From positions 1-28,181 of the forward strand of contig CAYIMB010000016.1 of assembly GCA_964364425.1 (NCBI GenBank): 28,181 bases of DNA. Direction: 5' to 3'. Position numbers and translations under genes: made by a program. This document shows, one piece after another, positions 1,258-17,020 of this stretch. The notes below the pieces were generated by a model. The model was not told the DNA's origin and searched no databases. It worked only from the letters and a program-made list of their open reading frames with translations. The stretch comes from an uncultured Gammaproteobacteria bacterium (GTDB lineage: Bacteria > Patescibacteriota > Patescibacteriia > UBA9570 > JBBTWU01). Each line of letters starts with the position of its first letter. The stretch's first letter is position 1.

Positions 1258-1650
1258 GGGGATGCTCAAAATTGATAGAACATTGATAGTTCTCGGTGCA
1301 AGCCGGTGGTCAACCTCACGTTACGAGGTTGAAAGAATACTTGCCAACGTATTCGAACAACTGAAAGCAAAAGTGGCCGGTTCATTCCGTGCCAACTTGG
1401 CTTTCAGCCCTGTAGCTTAAACCCTACAGCATCCTAACCGTTGACGCCTTCTAGGCGGATCTAGGGTGATATATAAGAAGGCTCGTTGTTTGCGCGCCGT
1501 GCGTAAAACAACTAGATTGGACACGGCTGACATGTGTTGTAGAGTGCCAGTTCATTTCTGCAGCGCATGGACACTTGAAAACTGGCTACGCTTGTAGTGC
1601 CGGAATGTGATATGCTCTAGACAGGGGTGTGATACCCCTCATCTCCACCA
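1258..1650 (+). ncRNA. ssrA: tmRNA (ssrA), one-piece, CCA encoded
   Basis: The 5' GGGGATG pairs with CATCTCC just before the 3' ACCA. The 3' end AGACAGGGGTGTGATACCCCTCATCTCCACCA matches E. coli GGACGCGGGTTCAACTCCCGCCAGCTCCACCA arm for arm. A PK1-like stretch GGTGCAAGCCGGTGGTCAACCTCACGTTACGAGG resembles E. coli GGUGCAUGCCGAGGGGCGGUUGGCCUCG. The tag frame GCC AAC TTG GCT TTC AGC CCT GTA GCT TAA (ANLAFSPVA*) has its stop in the loop of a CTGTAG/CTACAG helix, like helix 5. The gene sits directly after smpB. Confidence 0.65.
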
Positions 1651-2749: not shown

Positions 2750-5700
2750 CTAGCTAGAAGGCTTGGCAGGTGGCGCTAGCTCCAGTACCTTATGCGCTTT
2801 GGCGTTTGCTGCTTGCAGATGATCGAGTTCTGTATTCACACTCTCTAGCATTTTTACTCTGTCATCCTCTGTGCCCACTTTCTTTCCACTTAATAGCTGG
2901 TTGAACTGATCAATGGTGTACTTCAGCGCTAAAGCTTCTGCATTGCGGTAAGATTTTTCAGCTTGCTTCAATTCTGTGAACATGGCGTAAACAGACGACG
3001 GAGCAGGCATCACATCTCTAAGCCTCTCTTGCAACGTCTTGTTTACCACCAAAGCATCACCTGAAACCTTGGCTATTCGTTCTATCCTGCGGGTCATGTC
3101 GCCAAACGGGTCTCCCACAAAAACAGACATCAGAGCGTTAAATGGCCCGGCCCGTTTTTTTACTTCGGCCTTAGCTAATTCAATCAGGTCTCTATCCCGA
3201 ATTAAATCGATCAACTCGGTGAAAGAACCCGGGGGTTCTAGATTGCCCACTTTTGGAGGGTAACTGGCTTCAATAACCAATCCGCGCCCAACCGGCGGGG
3301 CGGGCAGAATCACAGGCTCACCAGGTGGCCGAGGCGTAGGTGGTGTGGTTGGCTCACCACTGAGCAAGGTTTTTTTCAGGTTATTCCACTGATCTAACCT
3401 CAAACCATAAGGGCGGACTTGTTGTTTCTTGGCTTTTGCTTCCGCCTCTTCACGTAGTATGATAAAGCTGACTATTTTCTTTTCAGTATTGAGGCCGGTA
3501 ATTCTGAACTGATCATTTATTTTGAATGGGGGTCGGTCAGAACCGGTGTAGGCATAGATTTGTCCCGCCTTAATTTCGCTGAGCAACCTAACTTCCGCTG
3601 TCTCAACCGGAACACCACCTACCTTGGCCTCCGGCCTAGGGCCACTCACCAGTGTTTTGGGTAAGCCTCGCCAAACCTCCCTGGACGCCATAAATGGTTG
3701 AGCTGAGCTTTTTGCTCTGCCAGCTGCAGCTTCGTCTTTAGCTGTGACCACAGTAACTAATCCTTTTTCATGGTCAACCCTGACTACTCTAAAATTTCCT
3801 CCCGGGTTGAGCTGATTTTTACGGGAAGGAACACCATCATACCTCCAAATTTGTCCAACCATCACCTCTGGGGATAACGGATATTCTACTAAACGATCTG
3901 TTGGTCTGATTCGTTCCAAGCTTGGTTGTCCGCTTGGTTCAGCCTCAAGTGGACCTGCCCCTTGCAGAACCTTTACTTTTTTCCCGGTCACCAAGCCGGC
4001 AAAGGCTTCTAAAGGGACTCTAACCACCCCAACATCTACACCCTCCACATCCAGAAGAACTTCCCCACTGACCAAGACAACCCCCTCTACCCGAACCTTA
4101 GTTGGGATGGGCTGTTTAGGGTGTTTGATAATCCATTCTTCCAGGTGTGAACGCAACAAACTGCTGACCGCTTCCTCACCCAACTCAACCAGGTGGTTGG
4201 TTTGAATTCCGGCCCGTTCAACGGTGTTAGCCAAACCCTCCATCTCCTGCGCCATCCGGTACAACTGTTCTATAGACATCACTCCGATTGTTCCGTCTGG
4301 AAGGTTCAATTCAACCTCCTCCTGCGCAACTGAAATGCTTTGAATTCGCAAGGGTTCAGATACCACGGTGAGTCCAAACATTTTTTCCAACGTACGCTTA
4401 GAACTTGCACTCAGGCCTAAAAATTCACCCACAGCAAAGAAGTTTTTATTGAGCCATGAATTCATTTCGCCGGCAGTTAATTTTTGGGCTTCTCCCTCTG
4501 GTGGGCGGACTGCATCTGGAGCAGAGGTTGGTGCCCTGACCTTCAGCGGCGCAGGCAAACCAAAATCTGGCATGGGGGGTGGCGGTGGCGCACTAGCCGG
4601 AGCGCCGCTGGCGAGGCGTTCTAATTCAGTAATTCTTCCGTCCAAAATAGGCACTAACCCGTCCGCCAGGAGTAAATCACTCACAAAATCTTGGTCCAAA
4701 TAACGTGTACCGTCTTCTTTTTTCCGTTTACCCCCAACACGTACCCAAGCGTCACCCACGGCATACACCTTTTCTAATTCTGCTTTACGCTGCCGTAAGG
4801 CCTCAACATCCTCAGCATAAAAAATATCAAGACCTTCTTGTGTCACTCTAAACTCAACGTTTGGTTGAACCAAGGGTCTAAATTCGTCAATGTCTTCACC
4901 TAAATCGGCTTTGCGTTGTGCCCGTTCTTGCGTCCGAGCCGCCTCTTCAGCGGTACGGCGGGCAAGTTCTTCAGCCCCTTCCTTAGCTAACACTTTTTTG
5001 GCACTTTCAATCTCCGCGCTAACTCGCTGAATTTCTTTAGACACTTTTTCTTTCTCTAGACCCAAAACTTTATATCTGCCTTCCTCTGCCAGATCACTTT
5101 CAAACTTCTCCGGATTGGCTAATATCTTTCTCCTTTCTTCAGCCATCAGACGCTCTAACTTACGCAACACATCCAAACGTTCAGACAAGCCCTTGGCCGC
5201 CAACTCAGGACTATCAAGCTGGATGAATAACTGCTCCATCAAAGCCACCCCTTCAGGTGAGACTAAACCTTTTAGACTGTCCCACAGTTCTTTACCCTTG
5301 CCCGCAGGCTCCGCCTTGGCAGTGGCCGGAGTGACTCCTTTTTTTGGTTCAAACCCTTCAAAATAACACAACAGCTGGAACTTGTGTCTGGCCTGAGCAT
5401 GTTCTGTATACACCAATTTCACCTCGCCCTTGTCATTTGCCTTGAGCTGATCAGGCGTCCAACCTTTGGGAACTTGAACATACGCATCAAACTTAAATTC
5501 AGGGTCGACCAGATTAGGCAACACCACATACTCACCATCCTTTTTTACCTCCTTCACCGCATCAACTGACAACATAAAATGGTTTTTTCCCTTGCTTATC
5601 CGTTCATCTACCCTCTTCCCCCAGGCCTTAATTTGGTCTTCACTCTCAGCATACTCAGGGGACAGCACCTCCACAATCAAATTTTTGGTTCTAGGATTTT

Positions 5701-6247
5701 CTTTTATTTCCTGAACAGCAAACTCATACTTCTCTACACCTTCTTCAGGCTCCCAGTCCCGAGGAAAATTCTTCACTTCAATGCGTACAGGAAGAAAATG
5801 ATGCTGAGAGTCTATATCCTCAAACGCTAAAAATCTGCGGCCACCTTCCTCTATCACCGGCAAAGTCACTTTTTTTCCTGGTGGATACTTCTCACTCCAA
5901 TGTTTTGCCGATTCAACTACCGCCCGTTGCCACTCTTGCTCAGCCTGCTGTTTCACCGGCTCTGACCCCACAATCTTCCCCTTGACTCTCTTTCCGTCTC
6001 TTGAAACAAAGGTGATCTCTAGATCAACAATATTTTGCAATGGATTAAATTTTGGTGGCACACCCTCAACCTCAACCATTGGTGGAGTAGTCCGCCCGCC
6101 TCCCACCATAAAAGCAACCGTCTCCCAAGGGCTTCTGCTCCCTGGTTTGAGTTGCATGGGATAGACTTGCTTAAACTCAAAGTCGATTTTCACTGGACCC
6201 TTGTCCGGTGGTGGTGGTTGCTGTCCTTGTTGTTGTCTTTTTGGCAT
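2750..6247 (-). CDS. giant hypothetical protein (1165 aa). Has Pro-rich linkers, a central coiled coil, and an internal SH3-like repeat pair. No signal peptide and no recognisable catalytic motif.
   Basis: A single uninterrupted 3.5-kb ORF. The poly-Pro spacers are PPPPDKGP, APPPPPMPDFGLPAPL and TTPPTPRPPGEPVILPAPPVG. The coiled coil is AEELARRTAEEAARTQERAQRKADL. The repeated module is GQIWRYDG...NFRVVRVDHEKGLVTVV versus GQIYAYTG...QFRITGLNTEKKIVSFII. I found no P-loop, HExxH or other catalytic signature. It is translationally coupled to the PP2C-fusion gene upstream (3-bp gap). Confidence 0.6.
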   Translation of the reverse strand: MPKRQQQGQQPPPPDKGPVKIDFEFKQVYPMQLKPGSRSPWETVAFMVGGGRTTPPMVEVEGVPPKFNPLQNIVDLEITFVSRDGKRVKGKIVGSEPVKQQAEQEWQRAVVESAKHWSEKYPPGKKVTLPVIEEGGRRFLAFEDIDSQHHFLPVRIEVKNFPRDWEPEEGVEKYEFAVQEIKENPRTKNLIVEVLSPEYAESEDQIKAWGKRVDERISKGKNHFMLSVDAVKEVKKDGEYVVLPNLVDPEFKFDAYVQVPKGWTPDQLKANDKGEVKLVYTEHAQARHKFQLLCYFEGFEPKKGVTPATAKAEPAGKGKELWDSLKGLVSPEGVALMEQLFIQLDSPELAAKGLSERLDVLRKLERLMAEERRKILANPEKFESDLAEEGRYKVLGLEKEKVSKEIQRVSAEIESAKKVLAKEGAEELARRTAEEAARTQERAQRKADLGEDIDEFRPLVQPNVEFRVTQEGLDIFYAEDVEALRQRKAELEKVYAVGDAWVRVGGKRKKEDGTRYLDQDFVSDLLLADGLVPILDGRITELERLASGAPASAPPPPPMPDFGLPAPLKVRAPTSAPDAVRPPEGEAQKLTAGEMNSWLNKNFFAVGEFLGLSASSKRTLEKMFGLTVVSEPLRIQSISVAQEEVELNLPDGTIGVMSIEQLYRMAQEMEGLANTVERAGIQTNHLVELGEEAVSSLLRSHLEEWIIKHPKQPIPTKVRVEGVVLVSGEVLLDVEGVDVGVVRVPLEAFAGLVTGKKVKVLQGAGPLEAEPSGQPSLERIRPTDRLVEYPLSPEVMVGQIWRYDGVPSRKNQLNPGGNFRVVRVDHEKGLVTVVTAKDEAAAGRAKSSAQPFMASREVWRGLPKTLVSGPRPEAKVGGVPVETAEVRLLSEIKAGQIYAYTGSDRPPFKINDQFRITGLNTEKKIVSFIILREEAEAKAKKQQVRPYGLRLDQWNNLKKTLLSGEPTTPPTPRPPGEPVILPAPPVGRGLVIEASYPPKVGNLEPPGSFTELIDLIRDRDLIELAKAEVKKRAGPFNALMSVFVGDPFGDMTRRIERIAKVSGDALVVNKTLQERLRDVMPAPSSVYAMFTELKQAEKSYRNAEALALKYTIDQFNQLLSGKKVGTEDDRVKMLESVNTELDHLQAANAKAHKVLELAPPAKPSS
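6183..6191 (+). repeat. copy of over-represented 9-mer TCGATTTTC
   Basis: Exact match, context aagTCGATTTTCact, inside the 1165-aa gene. Confidence 0.6.
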
Positions 6248-6250
6248 AGG

Positions 6251-8644
6251 TTATTTCTTTGGTTGGGTCAAATCTTGAATCCGCTCCTGCAAATTTTCTA
6301 TACTATCCACCCAGAGCATAAAGTCTCCCACTTCTTCCATTGATTCTGGTTCAAACCTCTCCGGATATTTGGCCAGAGCTGCTTGCAGTTCCCTATAGAC
6401 TGGCTCAAATACTGTACCCCTAAACCGGCCCTGATCCAATTTTAACGCGTAGTTACCTGCTTTAAACCATATCCGTACAGACCAGATAGACTGTTCTGCT
6501 GCGTCTAACAGTGCATCAACCTCCTCAAGTTTATGGGATACGTGTAAATCGACCTGTTCTGTTTCTAACTTGCGCAGCCATTGCTGTGCGGGCAAAGCCA
6601 TTCGTTTCAGCGGCTTCCCGTCCCTACCTAAAGCAAGCATAACTACTATATTTGGAGTGTCAGGGTCGTTTGGTGGAAAGACTTCAGTCACCTGCATCTT
6701 CTGCGTACCCCGGTCGTCAACCAATTCAAATACTCTCCCCTTCAAGGATTCAAAATCAGCCTCCAACCAAGCTAATATGTAACTTTGCTCAACCTGCTGA
6801 GACTGGCCCTCCTGTTGAGCTTCCAAGTTTTCAAAAGCATTCTGCCAATCTTTATTTTGCACCATAGTAGCGTAGCTCGCTTTTAGCTCTGGCCAGGCTT
6901 GGTCAAACTGATCCATAGCCTCAAGCAAGTAGTTCTTACGCACCGGTATTTTTTCCGCCCAGGGCCTGTCTAGCTTCACCCGTCCTTCTAACGCGGCTAA
7001 ATTATCCTCTAAGCTCCAAATCTCCCACAACAGGGCATCAGCAGCTTGTTCATTCTTTTGCATGTAACGCAAATCATGCTCCTGCAATCTTTTGCTTCTC
7101 AGTTCTGCACTTACAGAAGTGTGTTCAACTGAAGGCAACGGTGACAGCTCCGCCCTGGGAGGTGCCGGTTGCCAAGTTGGTAGTGGCGGCAACGGCGGTG
7201 GGACAACTCTTACTGGTTCAGAGGCCCAAGTAGGGTCTGGCGGCAACGGCGCCGGCCCAGGTTCTTCCTCTTCAACTTCAACCAGGACGGGAAGCTTAGC
7301 CCTCCCCCGGCGCGCTTCATCCACCGGGGTCTTTTCTTCTGCGTACCCTGGCCCGATTGGTTCTAAATGTGGGGCGGAGCGACTGGTCGGAGTAAAAGAT
7401 GTCACTTCAGTCCGGTCTGCATCTAGATGTCTAGGCAAAACGGGAACAGCCTGCCGCCTGACCAGTATGGTCTTGTGGTCTGCCCCACCGGCCCCCCTGC
7501 CGCCCGGTTGAAACAATTTCAATATATTATTTCTAGTTTCCTCTGCATTCCGGCCCACCAAATGGCCAAGCTCAGACAACGGATCAAGCAGTTTAGAAAA
7601 CGCACGCATGCTGTCATACGCTGGATCAAACACCCACCGATCTGTTTTTTTATCTTTCTTGGTTGGAATCACCCGCAAGCCCAAAGGCGCTAGTATGCCG
7701 TCTGTGACAGAGATGACGGTGTCATCCGGTTGCAATTCGAACTCCTCTACGGATACATCTGCATCATCATAGCCTAACACCTTGACTGGATCAACCCAGA
7801 TAATTCGTTTTATTCTTTCTAAATCAGTACGCGCCAGATAGTTTAATTCAGACCGAATTTTTTCTATTGGCGTGGTGGCTAAATACTCACTCAGCTTGGC
7901 CTTCAGGTCTTTTGGTGGGACGTTATAGATATCAACAAAGCGTTGTAGCCGGCTGGTTGGCTTAGAACAAAACACTACCTTCTCATTTCTGATCACCAAG
8001 TTCATGGCATCACCCAACACAAATGAATATAACTTGTTTCCCTCAATCAATGTTCCGGCTACAACTGATCCGCCTTCTGCATCTGGACCAAGAGCTTCCC
8101 TCACCGCGGCATGGGCTTTATGTCCAATCAACTTAAGTCGATTTTCAGGGGTATTTTTTACGCTGCGAGTGCGTAATTCCCCCTGCAACATCCCCGCCTG
8201 TTCAGGTGTAGTCCACTGGCGTATAGCCCTCAAGAGAGCTTGTGTGGCAATTCTTCCCTTCCCTCCATGACTCACTCCATCAGCCACAACCCCTATATCT
8301 AACAAAGGATCCACAAACACACCATCTTCATTATTTTCCTTCTTTCCGTGATCTGTTGAGTAGGCCACTTCTACGGCAGGAAGAACTATCTGGTCAGCAT
8401 AGTCGGTAATAGCAGGATCATCCTGGTACACCGGCATTCTGCCTACAAAATCTTCATAGGCTCTCCGTTGTTCAGGATTCAGGGCTGCTAGTCGTTCTTT
8501 AAACACGCGTTGAGCTGCCGGCTCAGCTGGTTCTCCAACCAACCCCGTGCCTGGGCCCGCCTTTGGCGGCGCACCAAATAATTTGCCTAATCCAAGGCTA
8601 TCTAGTAGTCCTCTCCCTGGGGTTTTGCCGGTAACGTCTGCCAT
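6251..8644 (-). CDS. large PP2C-type Ser/Thr phosphatase-domain protein (797 aa) with Pro-rich linker and a C-terminal domain of unknown function
   Basis: PP2C motifs appear in order. They are HGKKENNEDG (G..R..NED-like), IGVVADGVSHGGKGRIATQAL (VADGMGGH-like), GGSVVAGTLI...FVLGDA (GTT...GDS-like), VISVTDGILAPLG (LCSDGL-like) and GGADHKT (GGEDN-like). The metal-ligand Asp residues are retained. These are followed by a PLPPDPT...PPPLPPLPTWQPAPP linker and about 330 aa of unassigned sequence. Confidence 0.55.
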   Translation of the reverse strand: MADVTGKTPGRGLLDSLGLGKLFGAPPKAGPGTGLVGEPAEPAAQRVFKERLAALNPEQRRAYEDFVGRMPVYQDDPAITDYADQIVLPAVEVAYSTDHGKKENNEDGVFVDPLLDIGVVADGVSHGGKGRIATQALLRAIRQWTTPEQAGMLQGELRTRSVKNTPENRLKLIGHKAHAAVREALGPDAEGGSVVAGTLIEGNKLYSFVLGDAMNLVIRNEKVVFCSKPTSRLQRFVDIYNVPPKDLKAKLSEYLATTPIEKIRSELNYLARTDLERIKRIIWVDPVKVLGYDDADVSVEEFELQPDDTVISVTDGILAPLGLRVIPTKKDKKTDRWVFDPAYDSMRAFSKLLDPLSELGHLVGRNAEETRNNILKLFQPGGRGAGGADHKTILVRRQAVPVLPRHLDADRTEVTSFTPTSRSAPHLEPIGPGYAEEKTPVDEARRGRAKLPVLVEVEEEEPGPAPLPPDPTWASEPVRVVPPPLPPLPTWQPAPPRAELSPLPSVEHTSVSAELRSKRLQEHDLRYMQKNEQAADALLWEIWSLEDNLAALEGRVKLDRPWAEKIPVRKNYLLEAMDQFDQAWPELKASYATMVQNKDWQNAFENLEAQQEGQSQQVEQSYILAWLEADFESLKGRVFELVDDRGTQKMQVTEVFPPNDPDTPNIVVMLALGRDGKPLKRMALPAQQWLRKLETEQVDLHVSHKLEEVDALLDAAEQSIWSVRIWFKAGNYALKLDQGRFRGTVFEPVYRELQAALAKYPERFEPESMEEVGDFMLWVDSIENLQERIQDLTQPKK
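8138..8146 (+). repeat. copy of over-represented 9-mer TCGATTTTC
   Basis: Exact match, context aagTCGATTTTCagg, inside the PP2C-fusion gene. Confidence 0.6.
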
Positions 8645-8823
8645 AGTGTAAATTTGGCTTTTATTTTACCATTTTCTCTGCGGAACCACAACGGATGGGA
8701 TGAATGTAAAAGCCGGAAAATATATCAGAAATACGGAACAAGTCAATGACTTGGGAAAATCCGATCTGCACGACTAGACAAACCCTTGAAAATCAGTAAA
8801 CTGTGCTGTATTCGCAAGGCCTT

Positions 8824-8901
8824 GGAGCGGTGGTGTAGCTGGCCCAACACGCCTCCCTGTCACGGAGGAGACCGCGGGTTCGAATCCCGTCCGCTCCGCC
8901 A
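8824..8901 (+). tRNA. tRNA-Asp (anticodon GTC), CCA encoded
   Basis: Cloverleaf is GGAGCGG/CCGCTCC acceptor, GTGT/ACAC D-stem, CCTCC-CTGTCAC-GGAGG anticodon arm (anticodon GTC), GCGGGTTCGAATCCCGT T-arm, discriminator G, then CCA. The sequence is near-identical in architecture to E. coli tRNA-Asp. Confidence 0.88.
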
Positions 8902-9369
8902 GTCCGAACGACTTGATCTCTCAACAATTCTATCAAAGGGTTTCTTATATATAACATTGAGGTTTTTGTCTGTGAGGGAAGAGTTCGAAAGTAAAAAATT
9001 CAATAAATCTTGCTTTTCATCAGGATTGGCCTTTTTATAGAGAATACTGGCCATATTTGAAAGTTCTAAAATATCTATGCCAGTTTTGTAGTAATCGATA
9101 TTTGCCTTAGTGTAGCGAGCTATTTTTTCTGTCAGATCTTTAATAGCTGTTTCGTATTCAGTAGCTTTAGAATTATAAAAATCTTTAGTGATTGTCCCAT
9201 CTAATCTATCCTCATAAAGTGTACTAAGAGTTTTCTCCAACCGCTTCTTTTCAGCTTCTAGACGTTCTTGGGCTTGATCCTCTGTGTCCCTCTTAGAATA
9301 CAAAGACTGTTTCAGACCTGCGGCAACGTACGCAATCGCTTCCTGGGGTATTTTAAGGCCGTCTAGGTG
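8860..9369 (-). pseudogene. truncated large serine recombinase (C-terminal coiled-coil/DUF4368-like region only). The reading frame runs into the 3' end of tRNA-Asp.
   Basis: The frame is open from the stop at 9370-9372 down to 8860. It reads ...AEKKRLEKTLSTLYEDRLDGTITKDFYNSKATEYETAIKDLTEKIARY...LLNFLLSNSSLTDKNLNVIYKKPF. This matches the LYED.L.G.IS.E.F / coiled-coil / ...IEIYY C-terminal module of large serine recombinases. The roughly 350 aa that should precede it (catalytic, recombinase and zinc-ribbon domains) have no room, since only about 210 bp lie before the next gene. The ORF-track M at 9303 is a TTG. Confidence 0.45.
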
Positions 9370-9379
9370 TCAATCTACT

Positions 9380-9388
9380 GAAAATCGA
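9380..9388 (-). repeat. copy of over-represented 9-mer TCGATTTTC
   Basis: Exact match on the minus strand, context ataTCGATTTTCagt, in the recombinase-remnant region. Confidence 0.6.
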
Positions 9389-9400
9389 TATGAACTGAGG

Positions 9401-9583
9401 CTAAAAACCGGCTGGGTACCCCATGAGTTGTTTAACTTGTTGTATGGCTTGCCTACCTTGATCTGAAGTCTGGATGAGCAACATAAACATCATTGCTCCT
9501 ATAGCTATCAACAGGAGTTCCACTAAACTCCTAAACCACACATTTGCCCACATGTACTTCAATTCTTTTTTTAAGCGTGACAT
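9401..9583 (-). CDS. small hypothetical single-TM protein (60 aa), directly downstream of the NHL gene
   Basis: ATG at 9581-9583, 1 nt after the NHL-protein stop (TGAtATG). One hydrophobic helix, LVELLLIAIGAMMFMLLI. It could be a remnant. Confidence 0.2.
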   Translation of the reverse strand: MSRLKKELKYMWANVWFRSLVELLLIAIGAMMFMLLIQTSDQGRQAIQQVKQLMGYPAGF

Positions 9584-9584
9584 A

Positions 9585-11924
9585 TCAGGGGGCGAAATAA
9601 TCTACCACCGGAACAGTTCCATCCTTTTCGCTCACCGCAAAGGCACGCACTATTGCATCTGACTGTCCATCAGAGTTAATCACTTTCACTTCATAGTATC
9701 CCGGATCCATCTTGCCGATTGGGATGGTGGCAGTAATGGAAGTATCTGAGTTCACATACGTGGTCACCTGATATGACCCAAAGTACGTGACCGCCCCGTA
9801 ACGGAACTCCTGACCGCCAATTTTTATATCAACCGTTTGGCCCTCAGTATCTCCTATAGCCTTCCGGTTTGGCAAGGTATATCCAACCACCGGAGCAGGT
9901 TCAGAATAAGGAATTTGTCCACCTACCAGTTCAATATCAATCCGACGAATCACATCATTAAAGTTATCTGCTACATACAGCCGGTTGGCGGTCATGGCCA
10001 TACCTTTTGGATTATTAAATTCTGCGCTAGTGGCATCTCCGTTCTGGAACCCGCGGTCACCACCGCCAGCCACCAGCTTGGTCACACCACTTGATTTGTC
10101 ATACACGCGAACACGTTGACCGCCCACCTCACTCCAATACACATTTTTGTCCGCACCAAACTCTACAAATTCCGGATAGGACAGCTGAGCAGAACCCGGT
10201 TCTGCTTCTAAATATCCCAAATCCCCGCTCCCCACGTACGTAGTAACCTTGTTATCACGCAAGCGAATTTTCCTGATCACGTGGTTTCCCTTGTCAGCCA
10301 CAAAGAGGACAGTGCCTTTGGCGTTGATGGCCACGCCTACCGGCCCGTTGAACTGTGCATTACCCTTGGTTCCGTTGGTAAATCCGGCATCCAGTTGTCC
10401 GGCAATCAGCTTGGTTTTCCCTTTATTGGGACCCCTGGCCACCACTCGGCGGATCATGTTGTTGCTAGAGTCGGCCACATACAAATACTTGCCTGACGGG
10501 GAAATGGCCATGCCTGTTGGCCGGTTAAAATACGCACATCCAGTCACAAACACATCCTTTTCATCCGGACAAGCAACTCCTTCCGCATACCCGTTGTCCG
10601 TGTCGTTATTCGCATTAATGTTTCCCGCACCGGTCAGATACCCTACGGCTTTATCCTTAATTCTAACGTACCGGATACGGCTATTATTCCTATCCACCAC
10701 GTACAGCTTTTTACCGTTGGGTGAAACAACTACACCCGTTGGGTCACTAAACCGCGCCGCTCCGCCAACATACTCTTTGGTATCTTTCTTGGCGTAATTA
10801 TCCACCACATTGCCCACTAAGGCCTGTACCTCACCCGTGGCGCGCCTAATCCTGCGAATTTTATTATTCTCCGTAAAGTAAATCCATTTCTTCTTGGGCG
10901 ACAGGACCAACTCTTTTGGTCTCCCCACTAATCCCTCATCCCCCGTTCCGTTCTCACTTTGGAACCGGCGTTTTCCAGCATACTTCAACGGATTTGACCC
11001 ATCCATATCAAATCTGTACACACTAGATCCGCCTTTATTAGCCACGTAAATGTGGTCTCCAGACTTTACAATGCCGGAAGACCCGTTGAGTGTTTCCATG
11101 TGTGGATCTTCTACAATCACATCCTTGTCTCCGGTGTCCAAATCAACCTGACGTATATAGTCAAACAATCCATCACCATCCACTACATACAAGATGTCAT
11201 CTATAATGGCCAAACCTCCAATGTTGAGAAAGCCGGTGGCTACTGTACTGATATCTAAAGAATTCAGATCGATTTTCAACACGCGTTGCTGGCCGGTATT
11301 GGCAAAATAAATAGTGTCGTTTGATTTCACCATTTTAGTTGGTGAATTCAAACTATCAGCAATAGTCGTGACTAAATTATTTAAAAGGTTGATCTTCTTA
11401 ATGGCATCATGGCCAGTATCTGAGACGTACAACGTGGAACCACTGACTAAAAGACCTTTGGGATAAAACCAGCCTTCATCAGATATAGTAGTGACCTGCC
11501 CATCTTTTATTTTACGAATAGCGTGGTTATCTGTATCCGCTATGTAGATAGATCCATCAGAGGCCAGTGCCAGCGCTTCAGGGAAACCAAATTCCGAGGC
11601 ATCTACATCTCCGTCCACATATCCATAAGAGCCGGTTCCGGAGACGGTTGAAATAATTTGATTGGTGTCGATTTTCCTGATGACGTTATTCAGCGTATCC
11701 GCTAAATAAAAATTTCCATTGTCATCTACCACCATGTCAGACGGATTATCCAGGTAGGCTTGAGTGGCCACCAGTCCGTCACCGTTATAAATTTTAGACA
11801 CGAAGGTAGACACATCTCCATAGGTTGCGCCCGCGGTCTGCGGAAAAATGGTGGCGGTAAAAATCACACCAAGCGAAAAAAATAGTGGTGAAAATTGATG
11901 TTTCATATAGCGAAATAATACCAT
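9585..11924 (-). CDS. secreted NHL-repeat beta-propeller protein with C-terminal IPT/TIG-like domain (779 aa)
   Basis: N-terminal signal/anchor (MKHQFSPLFFSLGVIFTATIFPQTAGA). Repeated NHL-type blades include YLADTLNNVIRKI, YIADTDNHAIRKI, YVSDTGHDAIKKI, YFANTGQQRVLKI, YVVDRNNSRIRYV, YVADSSNNMIRRV, FVADKGNHVIRKI and YVADNFNDVIRRI. The C-terminal all-beta segment is YEVKVINSDGQSD.... The true start may be the second Met at 11906. Confidence 0.75.
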   Translation of the reverse strand: MVLFRYMKHQFSPLFFSLGVIFTATIFPQTAGATYGDVSTFVSKIYNGDGLVATQAYLDNPSDMVVDDNGNFYLADTLNNVIRKIDTNQIISTVSGTGSYGYVDGDVDASEFGFPEALALASDGSIYIADTDNHAIRKIKDGQVTTISDEGWFYPKGLLVSGSTLYVSDTGHDAIKKINLLNNLVTTIADSLNSPTKMVKSNDTIYFANTGQQRVLKIDLNSLDISTVATGFLNIGGLAIIDDILYVVDGDGLFDYIRQVDLDTGDKDVIVEDPHMETLNGSSGIVKSGDHIYVANKGGSSVYRFDMDGSNPLKYAGKRRFQSENGTGDEGLVGRPKELVLSPKKKWIYFTENNKIRRIRRATGEVQALVGNVVDNYAKKDTKEYVGGAARFSDPTGVVVSPNGKKLYVVDRNNSRIRYVRIKDKAVGYLTGAGNINANNDTDNGYAEGVACPDEKDVFVTGCAYFNRPTGMAISPSGKYLYVADSSNNMIRRVVARGPNKGKTKLIAGQLDAGFTNGTKGNAQFNGPVGVAINAKGTVLFVADKGNHVIRKIRLRDNKVTTYVGSGDLGYLEAEPGSAQLSYPEFVEFGADKNVYWSEVGGQRVRVYDKSSGVTKLVAGGGDRGFQNGDATSAEFNNPKGMAMTANRLYVADNFNDVIRRIDIELVGGQIPYSEPAPVVGYTLPNRKAIGDTEGQTVDIKIGGQEFRYGAVTYFGSYQVTTYVNSDTSITATIPIGKMDPGYYEVKVINSDGQSDAIVRAFAVSEKDGTVPVVDYFAP
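11269..11277 (+). repeat. copy of over-represented 9-mer TCGATTTTC
   Basis: Exact match, context cagaTCGATTTTCaac, inside the NHL gene. Confidence 0.6.
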
Positions 11925-11978
11925 AAAAAAGAAAATACCGCCTCCTCAAGTCTTGTGGACGAGAGGGGCGGTATTTCC
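11925..11978 (-). terminator. rho-independent terminator for the upstream minus-strand membrane-protein gene
   Basis: On the minus strand the sequence reads GGAAATACCGCCCCTCTC-gtccacaagacttg-GAGGAGGCGGTATTTTC followed by TTTTTTATGG. That is a GC stem of about 10 bp plus a U-tract, directly abutting the NHL gene start. Confidence 0.5.
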
Positions 11979-12040
11979 AAAGTGCAGTGCTCAGAGGTTC
12001 GTAGCAGAACCATAAGAGCTTGCGAGGCCTAGGCCCGTGG

Positions 12041-13411
12041 CTAGCGGGCGGTGACGGACACTCCGTCCGGACAGGTGAAGGTCTCACCCATCACCATCAC
12101 CTTCAGCACGGGCGAAAGGTCCCCCGCCCGATTGTACAGGCGGTAGACGTTCTCGTCCGACACGTTGGCTTGTCCGCCACACCCGTGAGGTGCCATGGCG
12201 TACTGGATGGACGAGTAGCCCCGAATGCTGTGGTAGTTGGACTCCAGCCAGACCTGCCTGTGCGTGCTACCACACTGGCAGATGAACACCGACCCAGCAG
12301 AGGTCGGCGAACCAATCCGGACGGACCCCTGCGGGTCAATCTGGACGGGCTGAAGGAACTTGGGGGTGGCCCCAGAATACCGACGGACTGCTTCCTCGGC
12401 GTGATCCTCGATGTTCAGCCCGAGCATGTCGGAGATGGCCAATCCCCCACACCAACCACACATGGCGAGGAAGGCCAGACAGACAGCCACGAACAGCACC
12501 GAACCCAACGAGAACTTGCCGCGCCACCACCCGATGAACATGGCCCCCACCACCAGCACGCCGGCCGCACCCAGGATGATGAGTCCCGTGTAGGACTCCA
12601 GCGTGGCCACGTTCTGCTGGGCCTGCTGGTTCCACGTGGTCACCCACGCGCGCTGATTGGGATCAGCGTAGTCCAGGGCGTAGGCGTTGCAGTTGCCCAC
12701 GCGGTCCACGTAGAGCGTCTCGCTCCACCAGACGAGACCGAAGTCGAAGACCTTCTGCTGGTGGACAGACAGGTCCCAGGCCGAGAGCGGGAGGGGGACG
12801 AGCTGCGCCTGCTCCGGGCCGCACGAGGGCGTCCGGTAGGCGTAGAACAGCTCTCCTTCCAGGGCCTGATCGGTGTAGGATCCGCGCGTGTTTACCTCCA
12901 GGGCCACGAACGCGTTGAGGACCACCACCACGACCAGGGCCGTGCCCGGCAGGAACTCGAAACCGAGCGACTGACCCAGCGCTTTCGCGCCGAGCCCGAA
13001 GCCGATCAGGAGCCCCATCACCAGCACGGTCGACCCGACCATCCAGAACCCCTGGCTGTGGGCCCCGTTCGCACCGGTGCTCCACATGAACTGCCAGCAC
13101 ACAACCGACAGCGCCATCAGCAGGCTGCCGCCGATCATGATGCGGTTGGCCTTGGGGAGGAAGGTGGGCGGCTCACGGCCCGCGGCCTTAACCCAGGCTT
13201 CAACGCCCAGGCCCACGCCGAGGAGCAGCACGTACGCCGCCCCGGCAATGGCCCAGCCGGTCGCGCTGAGCATGGTGGTGTGGAACTGGCTCGCCAGGAG
13301 GCTCACCGACCCGAAGGCCAGGAGCAGCGCGAGCGTCGCCACCAGCACCCCCCACACCAGGGACTGCTGGATGTTGAACCGAGAAAGGAAGTTACGCATT
13401 GGAAGCCTCAC
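12041..13411 (-). CDS. hypothetical polytopic membrane protein with Cys-rich C-terminal domain (456 aa), GC-rich
   Basis: At least 8 hydrophobic helices. The C-terminus has CQCGSTH...HGCGG...TCPDG cysteines. The opposing 466-aa plus-strand ORF is R/H/G/P-rich nonsense typical of antisense high-GC DNA. GC is about 64%. No family recognised. Confidence 0.5.
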   Translation of the reverse strand: MRLPMRNFLSRFNIQQSLVWGVLVATLALLLAFGSVSLLASQFHTTMLSATGWAIAGAAYVLLLGVGLGVEAWVKAAGREPPTFLPKANRIMIGGSLLMALSVVCWQFMWSTGANGAHSQGFWMVGSTVLVMGLLIGFGLGAKALGQSLGFEFLPGTALVVVVVLNAFVALEVNTRGSYTDQALEGELFYAYRTPSCGPEQAQLVPLPLSAWDLSVHQQKVFDFGLVWWSETLYVDRVGNCNAYALDYADPNQRAWVTTWNQQAQQNVATLESYTGLIILGAAGVLVVGAMFIGWWRGKFSLGSVLFVAVCLAFLAMCGWCGGLAISDMLGLNIEDHAEEAVRRYSGATPKFLQPVQIDPQGSVRIGSPTSAGSVFICQCGSTHRQVWLESNYHSIRGYSSIQYAMAPHGCGGQANVSDENVYRLYNRAGDLSPVLKVMVMGETFTCPDGVSVTAR

Positions 13412-13474
13412 AGTTGTTGACAGAGTTGGAGAGAGGAGAGGATTGAACCGACTCGCTTGGCCTTAGCCTGCAAA

Positions 13475-13483
13475 TCGATTTTC
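13475..13483 (+). repeat. copy of over-represented 9-mer TCGATTTTC
   Basis: Exact match in the intergenic region of the GC-rich island, context aaaTCGATTTTCgaa. Confidence 0.6.
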
Positions 13484-13582
13484 GAAAGATCCTCGACCTC
13501 GGACTCAACGTCAGGTTAGGTTGTGGGCTTCCCGAAGGATGCCCCCATCCGCCTGGCGCTGGGCCGAGGTCGAGACGGGGGT

Positions 13583-14764
13583 TCAGGGCTTCTTCTTGGG
13601 GGCCCCACCCCCGCCGGACTTGCCGCCCGGCGCGCCCTTGGACGACCCACCTCCGGGGCCACCCACAGCGTTGCCGGACATCACGTCGCCGACGGAGACG
13701 ATCGGGGCGTCGCTCGACGGCACCCCCGATTGTGCATCCAGACTCTTCAGCACCCGACTCCCCAGATAGGCCTGGGCCGCACGGTCCATGACCCCGGGGT
13801 TGGCCGGGAGCTTTTCCATGCCCATAGCCTTCAGGACTTTCCCCGCGGCACTGGCTCGGTGGTCGGCAGCCTTGTCAGCCTGTTCAGCCGACTGGACCTG
13901 CTCAACCGCCTTGCGGAGCGCTTCAGGGAGTTCGATCCCCTCGAGACGGACGTCGAAGATCACCAACCCGAACCGGTGAAGAGACTGGTTGGCCATCACG
14001 ACGACCTGCTCCATCAGCTCCTGGCGGTTTTTGTCCCGCTGGACACGGATGGGCAGCAGGTGACCGGGCCTACGCGTCACGCCCTGGTTCAGCCAGGCGT
14101 TGACCGCAAGCGGTTCAACGTCGGCAATCCCCAGCTCCTGCGCCGCCTCGTTGAGCGCGGACGCAATGGCCGTGGAGGCCTCCTGCCAGATGTTCTCTGG
14201 CCGGAGCGCCGCCCGGATGATGGCGGCGTCGGTGGTCACGTACGGCTGAGCCTTGTCGAAGGGCTCATCCGGGTGGGTCACGAAGATGTGGGTCTGGCGC
14301 TTGCGACGCGCTTCCCGCACCTTCTCGGCGTAGGCCGGGAACCGCTCAGCTTCCGCCAGCGGGATCCGGAACAAACGCCACTTCACCTCTCCAACCACCA
14401 CGGAGAAGCGAATGTTGAACGCGACGGCCTGCCCGTTCTTGACGTTCACGGGCATGGGGGCCACGTTTTCCTGCCTCGGGACACGGGAGACGATCGCCAC
14501 GAAGTCGTGGACGATGCCCGGGATGAACAGGCGCCACCCCTCGTTCTTCACTTCATATCCCTCGTAGATCCGATCCTCGGGGGGCATGTCGTAGCGAACG
14601 CTGTCGATCCGAGCCTGGTGCTCCGCCGGGGTTGACACACGAGAGTAGGGGGTTGAGCCCCACGCCGAGCGCAACACCATTGAAGTACCTTCTTCCACCT
14701 GGACGAGTCCAGGTGTCGGAGGGGTCTTGATGATCCCCGCCTTTGTTTCATCGATGTGGGCCAT
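13583..14764 (-). CDS. SPFH/band-7 (stomatin/flotillin-like) domain protein, no N-terminal TM, Gly-rich basic C-tail
   Basis: Band-7 core GWRLFIPGIVHDF...VNVKNGQAVAFNIRFSVVVGEV. The C-terminal SPFH helix region is GLVIFDVRLEGIELPEALRKAVEQVQSAEQADKAADHRASAAG. The tail is GGPGGGSSKGAPGGKSGGGGAPKKKP. The start codon overlaps the stop of the upstream small membrane ORF (TAAATG). Confidence 0.65.
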   Translation of the reverse strand: MAHIDETKAGIIKTPPTPGLVQVEEGTSMVLRSAWGSTPYSRVSTPAEHQARIDSVRYDMPPEDRIYEGYEVKNEGWRLFIPGIVHDFVAIVSRVPRQENVAPMPVNVKNGQAVAFNIRFSVVVGEVKWRLFRIPLAEAERFPAYAEKVREARRKRQTHIFVTHPDEPFDKAQPYVTTDAAIIRAALRPENIWQEASTAIASALNEAAQELGIADVEPLAVNAWLNQGVTRRPGHLLPIRVQRDKNRQELMEQVVVMANQSLHRFGLVIFDVRLEGIELPEALRKAVEQVQSAEQADKAADHRASAAGKVLKAMGMEKLPANPGVMDRAAQAYLGSRVLKSLDAQSGVPSSDAPIVSVGDVMSGNAVGGPGGGSSKGAPGGKSGGGGAPKKKP

Positions 14765-15157
14765 TTATTTCTCCCCCTTCTTGTTGGTGTTGTTGTCCTT
14801 GGTCGCGCTGCCGGACCGCCACCCGATCAAACCCACAAAGGATCCGACCGGGATGACGATCACGATGATCGCGCTCGCCACCATCATGGACAGGCTTCCC
14901 TGCATGATGGCGCGGAACCCCACGAACAGACCGACGAGGATGATCACGGTGATCACCCCGCCGAACCAGTTCTGGTTGTTCCGTTGGCTACCCTCGGTGG
15001 CCCCCTCCTCCACGGCCCTGGTCACCTCTTCGGCGCCCGGGATCATGTCGGGGTCGGGCTGTTCCGCAGGTTCCAAATCCAGCATCACGGGGGGCGGCCC
15101 CCCGGGATCCGTATCGTCGTCTGCGGCCATGGAGTCTCCCTTTTCACGAGCTTCCAC
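14765..15157 (-). CDS. small membrane protein (130 aa; acidic/Pro-rich N-terminus plus 2 TM helices), likely membrane partner of the SPFH protein
   Basis: Tightly coupled upstream of the SPFH gene, which matches the usual NfeD/YqiJ-like partner arrangement of SPFH operons. It shows no NfeD OB-fold, only the two TM segments VITVIILVGLFVGF and MMVASAIIVIVIPVGSFVGLIGW. Confidence 0.45.
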   Translation of the reverse strand: MEAREKGDSMAADDDTDPGGPPPVMLDLEPAEQPDPDMIPGAEEVTRAVEEGATEGSQRNNQNWFGGVITVIILVGLFVGFRAIMQGSLSMMVASAIIVIVIPVGSFVGLIGWRSGSATKDNNTNKKGEK

Positions 15158-15457
15158 CTGTCACCAGCCACGCATCCGCGTAACCAGCCAGGTGAAAATA
15201 CGGTAAGCCGTACTCATTTGAGTAGACGAATTTCTGTGAGAATCATCTGGTTCAACGCTACATACAATTCTTGTTCGTCTTTAACCAACAGATTCTGTTC
15301 ATCTGCTCAAGTGAGCACGGCTTCCGCCCTTTTCATACGTTCTCATACTACCCGAGTTTTCAAAGGACTCAGGAGTATAGTCCAAAAACAGCTTTTTGTC
15401 AATACAAAAACGGCCCTATTGCCCATGAACATTGAGTCAAATCAGGCCGTTTCTGAT

Positions 15458-15466
15458 TCGATTTTC
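15458..15466 (+). repeat. copy of over-represented 9-mer TCGATTTTC
   Basis: Exact match in the intergenic region, 20 nt before the 15487-15537 inverted repeat. Confidence 0.6.
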
Positions 15467-15486
15467 ACCACCAGAGCTGAGGCTCA

Positions 15487-15537
15487 GGGAGGTCTGCTCG
15501 TTCGGGAGCTTCAATCACCCTGCCTCGCAGACCTCCC
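15487..15537. other. perfect 11-bp inverted repeat (GGGAGGTCTGC...GCAGACCTCCC) with a 29-nt loop in a 390-bp intergenic region
   Basis: Lies between the DsbA-like gene stop (15551) and the GC-island gene start (15157). No U-tract follows on either strand. It could be an operator, RNA structure or processing site. Confidence 0.3.
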
Positions 15538-15550
15538 TTCCGCCTCACCT

Positions 15551-16324
15551 CTAGCGTGCTAAGGCATCCGCAACTGCTGTTTCAACTTGCGTCTGAGGCA
15601 CAGCACCGTTTAATTTTTCAGCTACATCACCAGCAATCACATAGGTTGATGGGGTACCACCCACACCTACGCTTTGACCTAGTTTTTGATCCGCAGCAAT
15701 CTTGGCATCAAACTCACCGGAATCAAGACAGGTAGCATAGTCGTCAGCATTTAAACCAAGGTCTGCGGCTACTTGCTTGTATAAGTCTTCGCCTAAATCG
15801 TTTTGATTATCATACAGTGTATCCACGTAGGTCCAGAAAGTATCATTCCCACCTAGCTTGCCAGCGCATTCGGCAGCAACGGCTGCTGGTTTAGCTTCTG
15901 GGTGGAAAGATAATGGGAAATGTTTATACACCCAGCGAACATCGTCTTGATTTGCTTCAAACACATTTTTGATAGAAGGGTGAAACTTTTTGCAGAACGG
16001 ACATTCTAAATCAGTAAATTCGACTAAGGTCACTTTGGCATCTGGGTTACCGCGTATATAATCATTCTCTCCAATGGTAATATCCGCCGCATCAACCAAA
16101 GTTGGAGTTGTAGTGGTGGTCGCGGTGTTGGTATTCGTGGTCGTTGTTGTTCCTGTCTTAGTAGATGTCTTAGCTGAACCTAAATCAATTCCTTTGACCA
16201 TCATGACCAACAAAAATACAAAACCGAGCAAGGTGAGTAACCCTGCTCCTACAAAAAAACCAAACCAAAAAGTGAGCTTCGGTGAGGCTGACTCAAACAA
16301 CGAACGTTTAGGTGTCTGTTCCAT
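15551..16324 (-). CDS. membrane-anchored DsbA-family thiol:disulfide oxidoreductase (CPFC active site), Thr-rich linker
   Basis: N-terminal TM, a (T)n low-complexity linker, then a thioredoxin fold with FTDLECPFCKKFHP and GGTPSTYV (cis-Pro region). Confidence 0.8.
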   Translation of the reverse strand: MEQTPKRSLFESASPKLTFWFGFFVGAGLLTLLGFVFLLVMMVKGIDLGSAKTSTKTGTTTTTNTNTATTTTTPTLVDAADITIGENDYIRGNPDAKVTLVEFTDLECPFCKKFHPSIKNVFEANQDDVRWVYKHFPLSFHPEAKPAAVAAECAGKLGGNDTFWTYVDTLYDNQNDLGEDLYKQVAADLGLNADDYATCLDSGEFDAKIAADQKLGQSVGVGGTPSTYVIAGDVAEKLNGAVPQTQVETAVADALAR

Positions 16325-16378
16325 AATTTGGATAAGTGAATCTTATTACTACAGAGAATAGTACATGAGGCCTAAAAT

Positions 16379-17020
16379 CTACGCAAGCAGTTGGTGAAAT
16401 TGGCGTAAAGCGGCTTCCGGCTGCTCCTGTTTCCAAATTCCACTGCCCACAATAATATCATCCGCTCCTGCCTGAATGACTCGGTCAATATTTTCCAGGT
16501 TGACTCCCCCGTCAATGGCCACGGAGACTTGGGAAAATCGTTTTTTAATTTCTTTGATTTTTTCCAACACGTCCGTTTGCATAGGCTGACCCTGTTTCCC
16601 CGGAGTTACGCTTAACAGCAACACACCATCTATCTTATTCATGTACGGTTCAAAAATTTGAAATGGCGTATCCGGATTACAGGCCAAACTAATTTCTTTG
16701 CCGCTAGCTCTCACCCGGTCAATCACTTCTTGGATGTTCCCCGCCGCCTCTACATGCACAACCAAGCGTTTAATGCTGGGGTGTTTAATCCAGCCCCGTA
16801 AAATCACATCCGGATGCATGACCATCAGGTGCACCTCAGTGTCTATCTTCAGATCGGGGATAGCATTTGGGTCTTCCACCGTCTTTCCCTTAGCAAACGT
16901 CCCGTCCACCACATCTAGTTGAGCCCTATAAAATAAGTCGGGATGTTGTTGCAAGATTTGAGCTTTAGATACAATCGCCTCTACCTCAGCCTCTAAGATT
17001 GCCGGAATTAACTTCGCCAT
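16379..17020 (-). CDS. rpe: ribulose-phosphate 3-epimerase family protein (divergent N-terminus)
   Basis: Contains HLMV, LLLSVTPGKQGQP (compare MSVNPGFGGQ) and AIDGGVN...AGADDIIVGSGIW. The N-terminal LDVVDGTF motif is diverged from canonical H.DVMDG.FVPN. It is adjacent to rpiB. Confidence 0.7.
   Translation of the reverse strand: MAKLIPAILEAEVEAIVSKAQILQQHPDLFYRAQLDVVDGTFAKGKTVEDPNAIPDLKIDTEVHLMVMHPDVILRGWIKHPSIKRLVVHVEAAGNIQEVIDRVRASGKEISLACNPDTPFQIFEPYMNKIDGVLLLSVTPGKQGQPMQTDVLEKIKEIKKRFSQVSVAIDGGVNLENIDRVIQAGADDIIVGSGIWKQEQPEAALRQFHQLLA

Follow-up and report, generated by a model that had tools for sequence, protein, structure and literature searches.

A truncated large serine recombinase whose frame ends inside a tRNA-Asp gene, the probable remnant of an element integrated at the tRNA 3' end

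Why should the C-terminal part of a large serine recombinase be encoded on the minus strand directly beside an intact tRNA-Asp gene, and why does its reading frame end inside that gene? The question is raised by a 28,181-nt stretch of DNA, referred to here as the window (contig CAYIMB010000016.1 of assembly GCA_964364425.1, from an uncultured bacterium that GTDB places in Patescibacteriota). An earlier note on this DNA, made from the sequence without database searches, had interpreted the locus as the scar of an integrated element, in which an eroded recombinase gene had become fused to tRNA sequence. We propose that an element carrying a large serine recombinase of ~510 aa entered the 3' end of tRNA-Asp(GTC) and that a later deletion left only a stump of the recombinase gene, a reading to which we assign a probability of about 0.85. 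As a scar the locus is ordinary; of greater novelty are the targeting of tRNA genes at the level of the recombinase family and, in relatives, a terminator-like hairpin that lies within the recombinase gene.

On the minus strand, 169 codons (9369 to 8863) are free of stops, and the in-frame stop that precedes them (9370-9372) abuts the start of the homology. By blastp, the stump aligns with residues 342-510 of P0037, an intact 510-aa recombinase, over 169 aa at 68.6% identity (E 7.6e-82), which confirms that the frame is what is left of such a protein, its C-terminal third. When two reconstructed full-length recombinases were compared with the window by tblastn, both matched at 9366 to 8863/8875 alone (query residues 342-505/509; E 4e-50 and 4e-51), and the next best match anywhere in the 28 kb had an E value of at least 0.79. 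The window thus holds no N-terminal piece, and therefore the first 341 codons are gone rather than displaced. By homology, the element-derived stump (8902-9369, minus strand) corresponds to codons 341/342 to ~497 of the ~510-aa recombinase and covers the coiled coil and the C-terminal segment past the zinc ribbon.

The catalytic, recombinase and zinc-ribbon parts are missing, as had been supposed. The resolvase-type catalytic domain (PF00239) is present in the full-length relatives, in whose alignment S11/S12 is conserved, and is absent from the frame and from the whole window. PF07508 and PF13408 are absent from the stump, in which homology begins at residue 341/342, past the conserved C292, C295, C317 and C324. 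The remaining post-zinc-ribbon segment is homologous to that of bona fide large serine recombinases and keeps 22 of the 22 conserved family residues in this stretch (5 invariant and 17 near-invariant). A Pfam search of the stump at E<=10 returned noise alone, with no match to PF07508, PF13408 or PF14287 (DUF4368), the profiles by which the earlier note had expected to recognize it. DUF4368 was likewise found in none of the 120 relatives listed, and the label "DUF4368-like" should be dropped. The stump does match NCBIfam CcrC (E 4.6e-5, model positions 382-531 of 558) and the PHROG 95 "integrase" family (E 2.5e-6, positions 450-566 of 651). The window copy is therefore a fragment of a large serine recombinase, not a functional member of the group, and cannot be catalytic.

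Gene callers nevertheless predict a 147-aa protein (P0001) from this frame, with a TTG start at 9303, and the frame of 147-169 codons might be a live gene for a coiled-coil-only protein, such as a dominant-negative blocker of related integrases, an excision factor or an immunity factor. Besides the prediction itself, such a gene would account for the clean frame over 169 codons, for the retention of all 22 conserved positions and for the recurrence of the same sequence on three further contigs from the same site. However, the in-frame stop stands exactly at the start of homology, no obvious ribosome-binding site precedes the TTG when the sequence is read by eye, and no promoter-like site was found upstream of the frame on the minus strand, where the only matches within 8600-9700 are at 8746. 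Moreover, the four contigs represent one population and are uninformative about selection, and comparable loci in other lineages show plain decay. An N-terminal boundary shared with P0002 and P0005 might also have spoken for a defined short protein, but the shared "M" start is an artefact of open reading frame (ORF) calling, because the corresponding sequences of L191 and L010 continue upstream into the zinc ribbon; a recurrent breakpoint at one residue in P0002, P0005, L018 and the stump was rejected on the same ground. We consider a live gene improbable, and the reading as a deletion-derived stump is kept in what follows.

The tRNA-Asp(GTC) gene (8824-8901, plus strand) is intact and is the sole tRNA called by ARAGORN in the window; Rfam scores it at 64.9 bits over 8824-8898. 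Translation places the end of the recombinase frame inside it, in agreement with the coordinates and peptides given in the earlier note. The overlap comprises 39 nt of open frame plus the stop codon, 42 nt in total, so that the tail of the frame (WRSGRDSNPRSPP and a TGA stop; 8860-8901, minus strand) consists of tRNA DNA read antisense. The TGA at 8862-8860 falls within the anticodon loop, the anticodon being at 8859-8861.

The position at which host DNA meets element DNA was located by comparison with a fairly close relative, L027. This 40-kb contig was reached via the 797-aa protein encoded at 6251-8644 of the window, homologues of which (46-54% identical) were found on three Logan contigs, L027, L028 and L029. 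Its SmpB-IF3-L20 block shows 88.6% nucleotide identity to the window, and the gene order is the same up to tRNA-Asp. Synteny with L027, L028 and L029 identifies the tRNA gene as host DNA. In L027, mgsA begins 21 nt past the tRNA and there is no recombinase remnant. With the same tRNA-Asp and left flank, and with mgsA directly next to them, L027 is, as judged by this comparison, an empty site.

L027 shares the first 76 nt of the window tRNA-Asp without a difference, and L028 and L029 match as far as they extend into it. Window and L027 agree through ...CCGCTCCGC and diverge beyond it, where the window reads CAGTCCGAAC... (recombinase codons) and L027 reads ACTTGTCTC...; the tRNA end is GCCA in the window versus GCAC in L027. 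Given this difference, it was probably the element that supplied the last two letters (CA) of the encoded CCA. A second, independent comparison involves two close relatives, L030 at tRNA-Asp and L034 at tRNA-Ser(GCT). Their DNA is closely similar from ...CCGCCA followed by GTCGCAAC onwards, while the tRNA bodies are unrelated; each of the two recombinases (L034 5139-6719; L030 7164-8731) shares 83% identity with the closest relative of the other. Both comparisons bound the crossover, and with it the remnant of the element/host junction (attL), to about the last 7 nt of the tRNA gene, positions 8895-8901 of the window (CCGCCA). Third, where Asn- and Gln-type relatives have no tRNA, the recombinase gene is followed by no more of the tRNA end than its initial 9-14 nt (TGGCTCCCC..., TGGCTGGGGGAC...). 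Taken together, the three comparisons put the crossover within the final 7-14 nt of the tRNA gene, and the last 13 codons of the window frame are therefore host tRNA read antisense.

A crossover in the anticodon loop, with an element that bears the 3' half of the tRNA, was prompted by the half-tRNAs that follow the recombinase in about a dozen loci. It was rejected because L114 and L013 carry a tyrosine-integrase element exactly at that point and because the L030/L034 boundary is at the very end of the tRNA; displacement by a second element is the better reading of the half-tRNAs. As a separate observation, the contigs L028 and L029, which derive from distinct samples and relatives, break off at one and the same base in tRNA-Asp (...GGAGACCGC, position 1 of each). 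The shared contig end suggests a branch in the assembly graph, and so sequence variation at tRNA-Asp in those populations.

The extent of the element beyond the stump is a second matter on which L027 bears. The earlier note had counted only about 210 bp between the stump and the next gene. These 215 bp are not empty: they hold a conserved ORF for a 60-aa membrane protein (9401-9583, minus strand), which is host DNA and not part of the element. L027 has an orthologous 50-aa ORF next to its NHL gene. Only the 31 nt at 9370-9400 remain without an assignment. Recombinase homology ends at 9366-9369 and homology to L027 resumes at the stop of the 60-aa ORF, and the 31-nt spacer is a probable deletion scar between stump and host DNA. 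Next to the 60-aa ORF lie the gene for a secreted NHL-repeat/TIG protein (9585-11924, minus strand; Pfam NHL 4e-33, and TIG) and a GC-rich cluster of three genes (12041-15157, minus strand; 63-65% GC) encoding a 456-aa membrane protein, an SPFH/Band_7 protein and a 130-aa membrane protein.

It had been suggested that a single decayed element, bounded near 15.2-15.6 kb, takes in the 3.2-kb GC-rich segment and the NHL/IPT gene as well as the stump. All of them are found beyond the tRNA, on the side of the element, and the GC content of 62-68% at 12.0-15.2 kb stands out against the window mean of 50.6%. However, window positions 9518-14542 are collinear with L027 11-5072 at 76.6% nucleotide identity over 5.1 kb, a block that comprises the 60-aa ORF, the NHL/TIG gene and the GC-rich genes and ends at window 14542 (the limit to which the cluster is orthologous), where the L027 locus ends. 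L027, which has no recombinase remnant, carries these genes in the same order and with the same GC anomaly (64-70%), and host genes (mgsA, the Germane-domain gene and the MTHFR gene) separate them from its tRNA. The stump is thus the only window-specific item, and no repeat of the tRNA end was found at 15.2-15.6 kb or elsewhere in the window. A larger element is very unlikely: on the evidence of this one informative relative, the NHL/TIG and GC-rich genes predate the split between window and L027 and are not cargo of the element. Synteny of this kind is what the earlier note had itself named as evidence against its reading, and for this part the one informative relative supplies it. Without drift toward the base composition of the host in either the window (12041-15157) or L027 (1-2485), the GC-rich cluster looks like an old acquisition.

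That an insertion split the recombinase gene and left its N-terminal part elsewhere, or that the contig is chimeric, would suit the abrupt loss of homology at 9369 and the foreign-looking DNA nearby, but the full-length tblastn search found no second piece in the window and three independent assemblies (L001-L003) from the groundwater site at Hainich, whose metagenomes are also the source of the window, give the same order of tRNA, stump, 60-aa ORF and NHL gene, which rules out misassembly and leaves this explanation with almost no weight.

Integration is also supported by the family to which the stump belongs. A first protein search with the stump returned proteins of 50-57% identity, whose contigs show Resolvase, Recombinase and Zn-ribbon domains upstream in the same gene. 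That all relatives were themselves fragments was rejected as an artefact of the C-terminal-only query: a full-length query gave over 100 proteins that are intact, 500-530 aa long, and contain Resolvase, Recombinase and Zn_ribbon_recom domains, mostly from Patescibacteria metagenome-assembled genomes. P0037 gives weak matches to NCBIfam XisF (2e-30) and CcrB/A/C, and its matches in the PDB are to catalytic domains only (TP901-1 integrase, TnpX).

From metagenome and viral collections, 160 loci were gathered, 83 of which were non-redundant and had enough downstream sequence. The recombinase frame overlaps a complete antisense tRNA in 41 of these 83 loci, and the proportion rises with relatedness to P0037, from 5/28 below 39% identity to 31/50 at 39-50% and 5/5 at 50% or more. 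A sense-strand tRNA at the end of the recombinase was found in 0/83 loci; the background density is 70 tRNAs per 1.79 Mb. In all 41 loci the frame reaches 12-111 nt into the tRNA, with modes at 15 and 42 nt. The targets are tRNA-Gln (13 loci), tRNA-Asp (10), tRNA-Asn (9), tRNA-Arg and tRNA-Ser (2 each) and tRNA-Pro, -His, -Glu, -Trp and -Ala (1 each), that is, at least 10 amino-acid specificities and 12 anticodons. Tails like ..SDW R.GRDSNPRP.. end most intact relatives.

A frame that crosses the element/host junction is hence found in the window and in all 41 tRNA-associated loci. Because intact members of 500-530 aa enter the tRNA likewise, read-through is the normal integrated state of the family and not a product of erosion. 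The earlier note is borne out in proposing a former integration beside tRNA-Asp, to which both the family pattern and the near junction point, and is not borne out in ascribing the fusion to decay. L030, the closest intact relative, has the exact layout of the window at tRNA-Asp, with an excisionase-family gene directly upstream of the recombinase. The difference in target between L034, at Ser(GCT), and L030, at Asp(GTC), implies easy target switching or a generic recognition of tRNA 3' ends. Decayed copies also occur at tRNA-Asp in other lineages: the L004 copy has two frameshifts, and those of L010 (7900-8100) and L018 (6099-6950) have lost the recombinase and zinc-ribbon region through internal deletions. 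Short codon strings that are repeated (LVKEN.. / ..VNEK..) mark the junctions of these deletions and suggest that they were microhomology-mediated. A further observation concerns P0022 and P0039, from a 50.7-kb Patescibacteria contig, whose tail (..MRRGWDLPLRGINFSSLLFMRRGWDSNPRSF) carries a piece of the tRNA 3' end twice, ~20 codons apart; the doubled piece may be a duplicated core of the attachment (att) site.

We propose the following history for the locus. A mobile element with a ~510-aa large serine recombinase would have entered the host tRNA-Asp(GTC) gene at its very 3' terminus, with a crossover in roughly the last 7 nt. In this family the recombinase gene faces the att site and has no stop codon of its own before it, and therefore after integration the frame runs on into the tRNA antisense and stops in the anticodon loop. 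The element side would have given the tRNA its encoded (C)CA and a new downstream sequence, which in relatives includes the terminator-like hairpin. L027 has a 4.55-kb block between tRNA and small ORF (5190-9747; mgsA, a 96-aa ORF, a Germane-domain protein, MTHFR and a 96-aa ORF), in place of which the window has the stump of ~470 nt plus 31 nt (~0.5 kb). One deletion may then have begun at recombinase codon 341, taken away the remainder of the element with its far junction and probably ~4.5 kb of adjacent host DNA, and ended just after the 60-aa ORF, leaving the stump and the 31-nt scar joined to the 60-aa ORF, the NHL gene and the GC-rich block. Alternatively, L027 gained the 4.55-kb block and the deletion was smaller, a choice that one relative cannot decide. 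Within that block, L027 5190-7000 (MTHFR and a 96-aa ORF) has 61% GC in a genome of 44-50% GC, and the block itself may not be wholly ancestral.

Several points weigh against this history. No far junction, direct repeat or cargo is left in the window, so that integration is read from the family pattern and the near junction only. The comparisons bound the crossover to a few nt and do not fix the exact dinucleotide. The empty site is covered by one relative, L027, which does not fix the ancestral state of the 4.55-kb block. In addition, the stump carries no frameshift or stop over its 169 codons and has kept its 22 of 22 residues, which fits a very recent truncation as well as continued selection.

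A search for the far junction gave little. Allowing up to 3 mismatches, no repeat of the tRNA 3' end was found anywhere in the window, and thus none near 15.2-15.6 kb, where the earlier note had suggested looking; repeats within 8700-16400 were none of them convincing. Among 55 loci searched up to 10 kb upstream of the recombinase, no tRNA-end repeat was found save a 16-mer in L030 (AAGTCCCGTCCGGTCC). This exact copy of the tRNA-Asp 3' strand (2146-2161 and 8659-8674) lies 6.5 kb from the tRNA and is too long for chance; it is followed by TCTTG, without the discriminator G73 and CCA, and has little resemblance to an original tRNA end that was displaced. Candidate free (attP) forms have a tRNA-like core of 9-14 nt after the recombinase gene and are ambiguous, with tyrosine-integrase elements or phage genes beyond. 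L088 and L092, considered as free forms, share this ambiguity: two tyrosine integrases lie past the core in L088 and phage genes in L092.

Tyrosine-integrase elements adjoin these serine recombinases in L013 (5059-6126), L114 (1705-2982), L088 (11686-13907) and L030 (4750-5709), and sometimes leave just half a tRNA beside the serine recombinase. These tRNA ends act as shared landing sites that are used in tandem.

In five relatives, the DNA that the element places next to the tRNA folds into a structure of its own. The 55 nt after the tRNA in L030 (8600-8654), L031 (11434-11488), L004 (10273-10327), L010 (8425-8479) and L017 (3175-3229) form a hairpin of 9-13 bp followed by U6. Folding energies range from -19.5 to -28.5 kcal/mol (z -6 to -11), and 0/200 shuffled sequences folded as well. 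The hairpin is encoded antisense in the conserved YKKPFDxIYQR codons of the recombinase, and it looks like an intrinsic terminator brought by the element for a tRNA that integration would have severed from its downstream region. The equivalent position in the window (8911-8950, plus strand) does not fold (-2.8 kcal/mol, z +0.96), and no terminator-like site was found within 8600-9700. There the window codons read ..KKPFDRIVERS... Because the ..I(L/V)ER(A/S)S.. variant also occurs in intact relatives, the absence of the hairpin from the window may be a natural variant rather than decay.

How do these recombinases relate to known systems? The full-length relatives share the Resolvase, Recombinase and Zn_ribbon_recom architecture of serine integrases (those of phages A118, TP901-1, Bxb1 and phiC31, and also Ccr and Anabaena XisF). 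The small excisionase-like gene upstream in L030 is a further likeness, and no long direct repeats flank these elements, as expected for a short crossover core. Staphylococcal Ccr integrates at the 3' end of rlmH, and like it these elements enter the very end of a conserved gene and leave its product intact. Unlike the known serine integrases, they target tRNA genes and have a recombinase frame without a stop before the junction. In 2020, serine integrases were said to be "not known for targeting tRNA genes", with 14 of 297 predictions at such sites for which "experimental proof will be required" (PMC7192596), and a 2026 survey of proviruses summarized them as preferring targets in coding sequences (PMC13626063). 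Among the tycheposons of Prochlorococcus, a minority carry a large serine recombinase (bioRxiv 10.1101/2020.12.28.424599).

The layout also resembles that of tRNA-associated islands and prophages with tyrosine integrases (P4-like, Islander-type), in which an integrase gene likewise abuts the intact 3' end of a tRNA gene and for which the same tRNA ends are hot spots (L013, L114, L088, L030). They differ in enzyme class, and no displaced tRNA fragment of 16-50 nt lies at the far end of the present elements. In addition, those islands cross over at the anticodon or T loop, whereas here the crossover is placed in the last 7-14 nt of the tRNA.

A parallel for the frame that spans the att site is provided by IntP of myxophage Mx8 and the integrases of fusellovirus SSV, in which the gene likewise acquires a different 3' end on integration. 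For Mx8, too, tRNA-Asp genes serve as targets. Both are tyrosine recombinases, and the SSV gene is split in two, whereas here only the last ~4-37 codons are swapped. The Mx8 int frame across attP has been documented (PMC6070905), and the arrangement has been noted for Mx8 and SSV (PMC4383910).

A non-exhaustive literature search found no paper describing this clade of serine integrases. At about even odds, the stump belongs to a large and essentially undescribed clade that is abundant in Patescibacteria (the candidate phyla radiation, CPR) and also found on viral contigs. Its members would insert at the last few nt of tRNA genes, with close relatives differing in the tRNA used, and would have the att site within their own 3' frame and so a tail encoded by the host tRNA; the Patescibacteria-type relatives examined would also give the tRNA a new CCA and the terminator hairpin. 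Serine integrases are prized in genome engineering and are thought to avoid tRNA targets (PMC7192596; PMC13626063). If the proposal is true, the clade would supply natural integrases for bacteria that are hard to manipulate, CPR among them, with landing sites that are predictable and near-universal. It would also explain tRNA-adjacent islands missed by island finders based on tyrosine integrases, and would be a second case, besides Mx8 and SSV, of an integration that rewrites the C-terminus of the integrase itself. For annotation of the window, the ORF called at 8860-9303 should be described as a recombinase pseudogene fragment fused to tRNA antisense, and the NHL and GC-rich genes beside it should carry no label as cargo of an island.

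Other searches contributed little. The exact pattern of the tRNA 5' half had 0 matches in the genome contigs searched, a query with rpe returned relatives at no more than 34% identity only, and PHROG, NCBIfam and Pfam searches of the 1165-aa, 797-aa and GC-rich proteins found little. The ORFs of 1165 and 797 aa (2750-8644, minus strand) contain no Pfam domain save a weak PP2C-like match. This pair is fast-evolving, with 46-54% identity to the counterparts in L027-L029 versus 88.6% for the flanking housekeeping DNA. At the left of the window, Rfam identifies a full tmRNA (91 bits) at 1258-1650 (plus strand), beside smpB (779-1219), which ARAGORN did not report. The mechanically called 194-aa ORF for IF3 (1607-2191), which starts at a GTG, overlaps the 3' end of this tmRNA; IF3 of L027 has 156 aa, and the true start of infC is probably later than the GTG at 1607.

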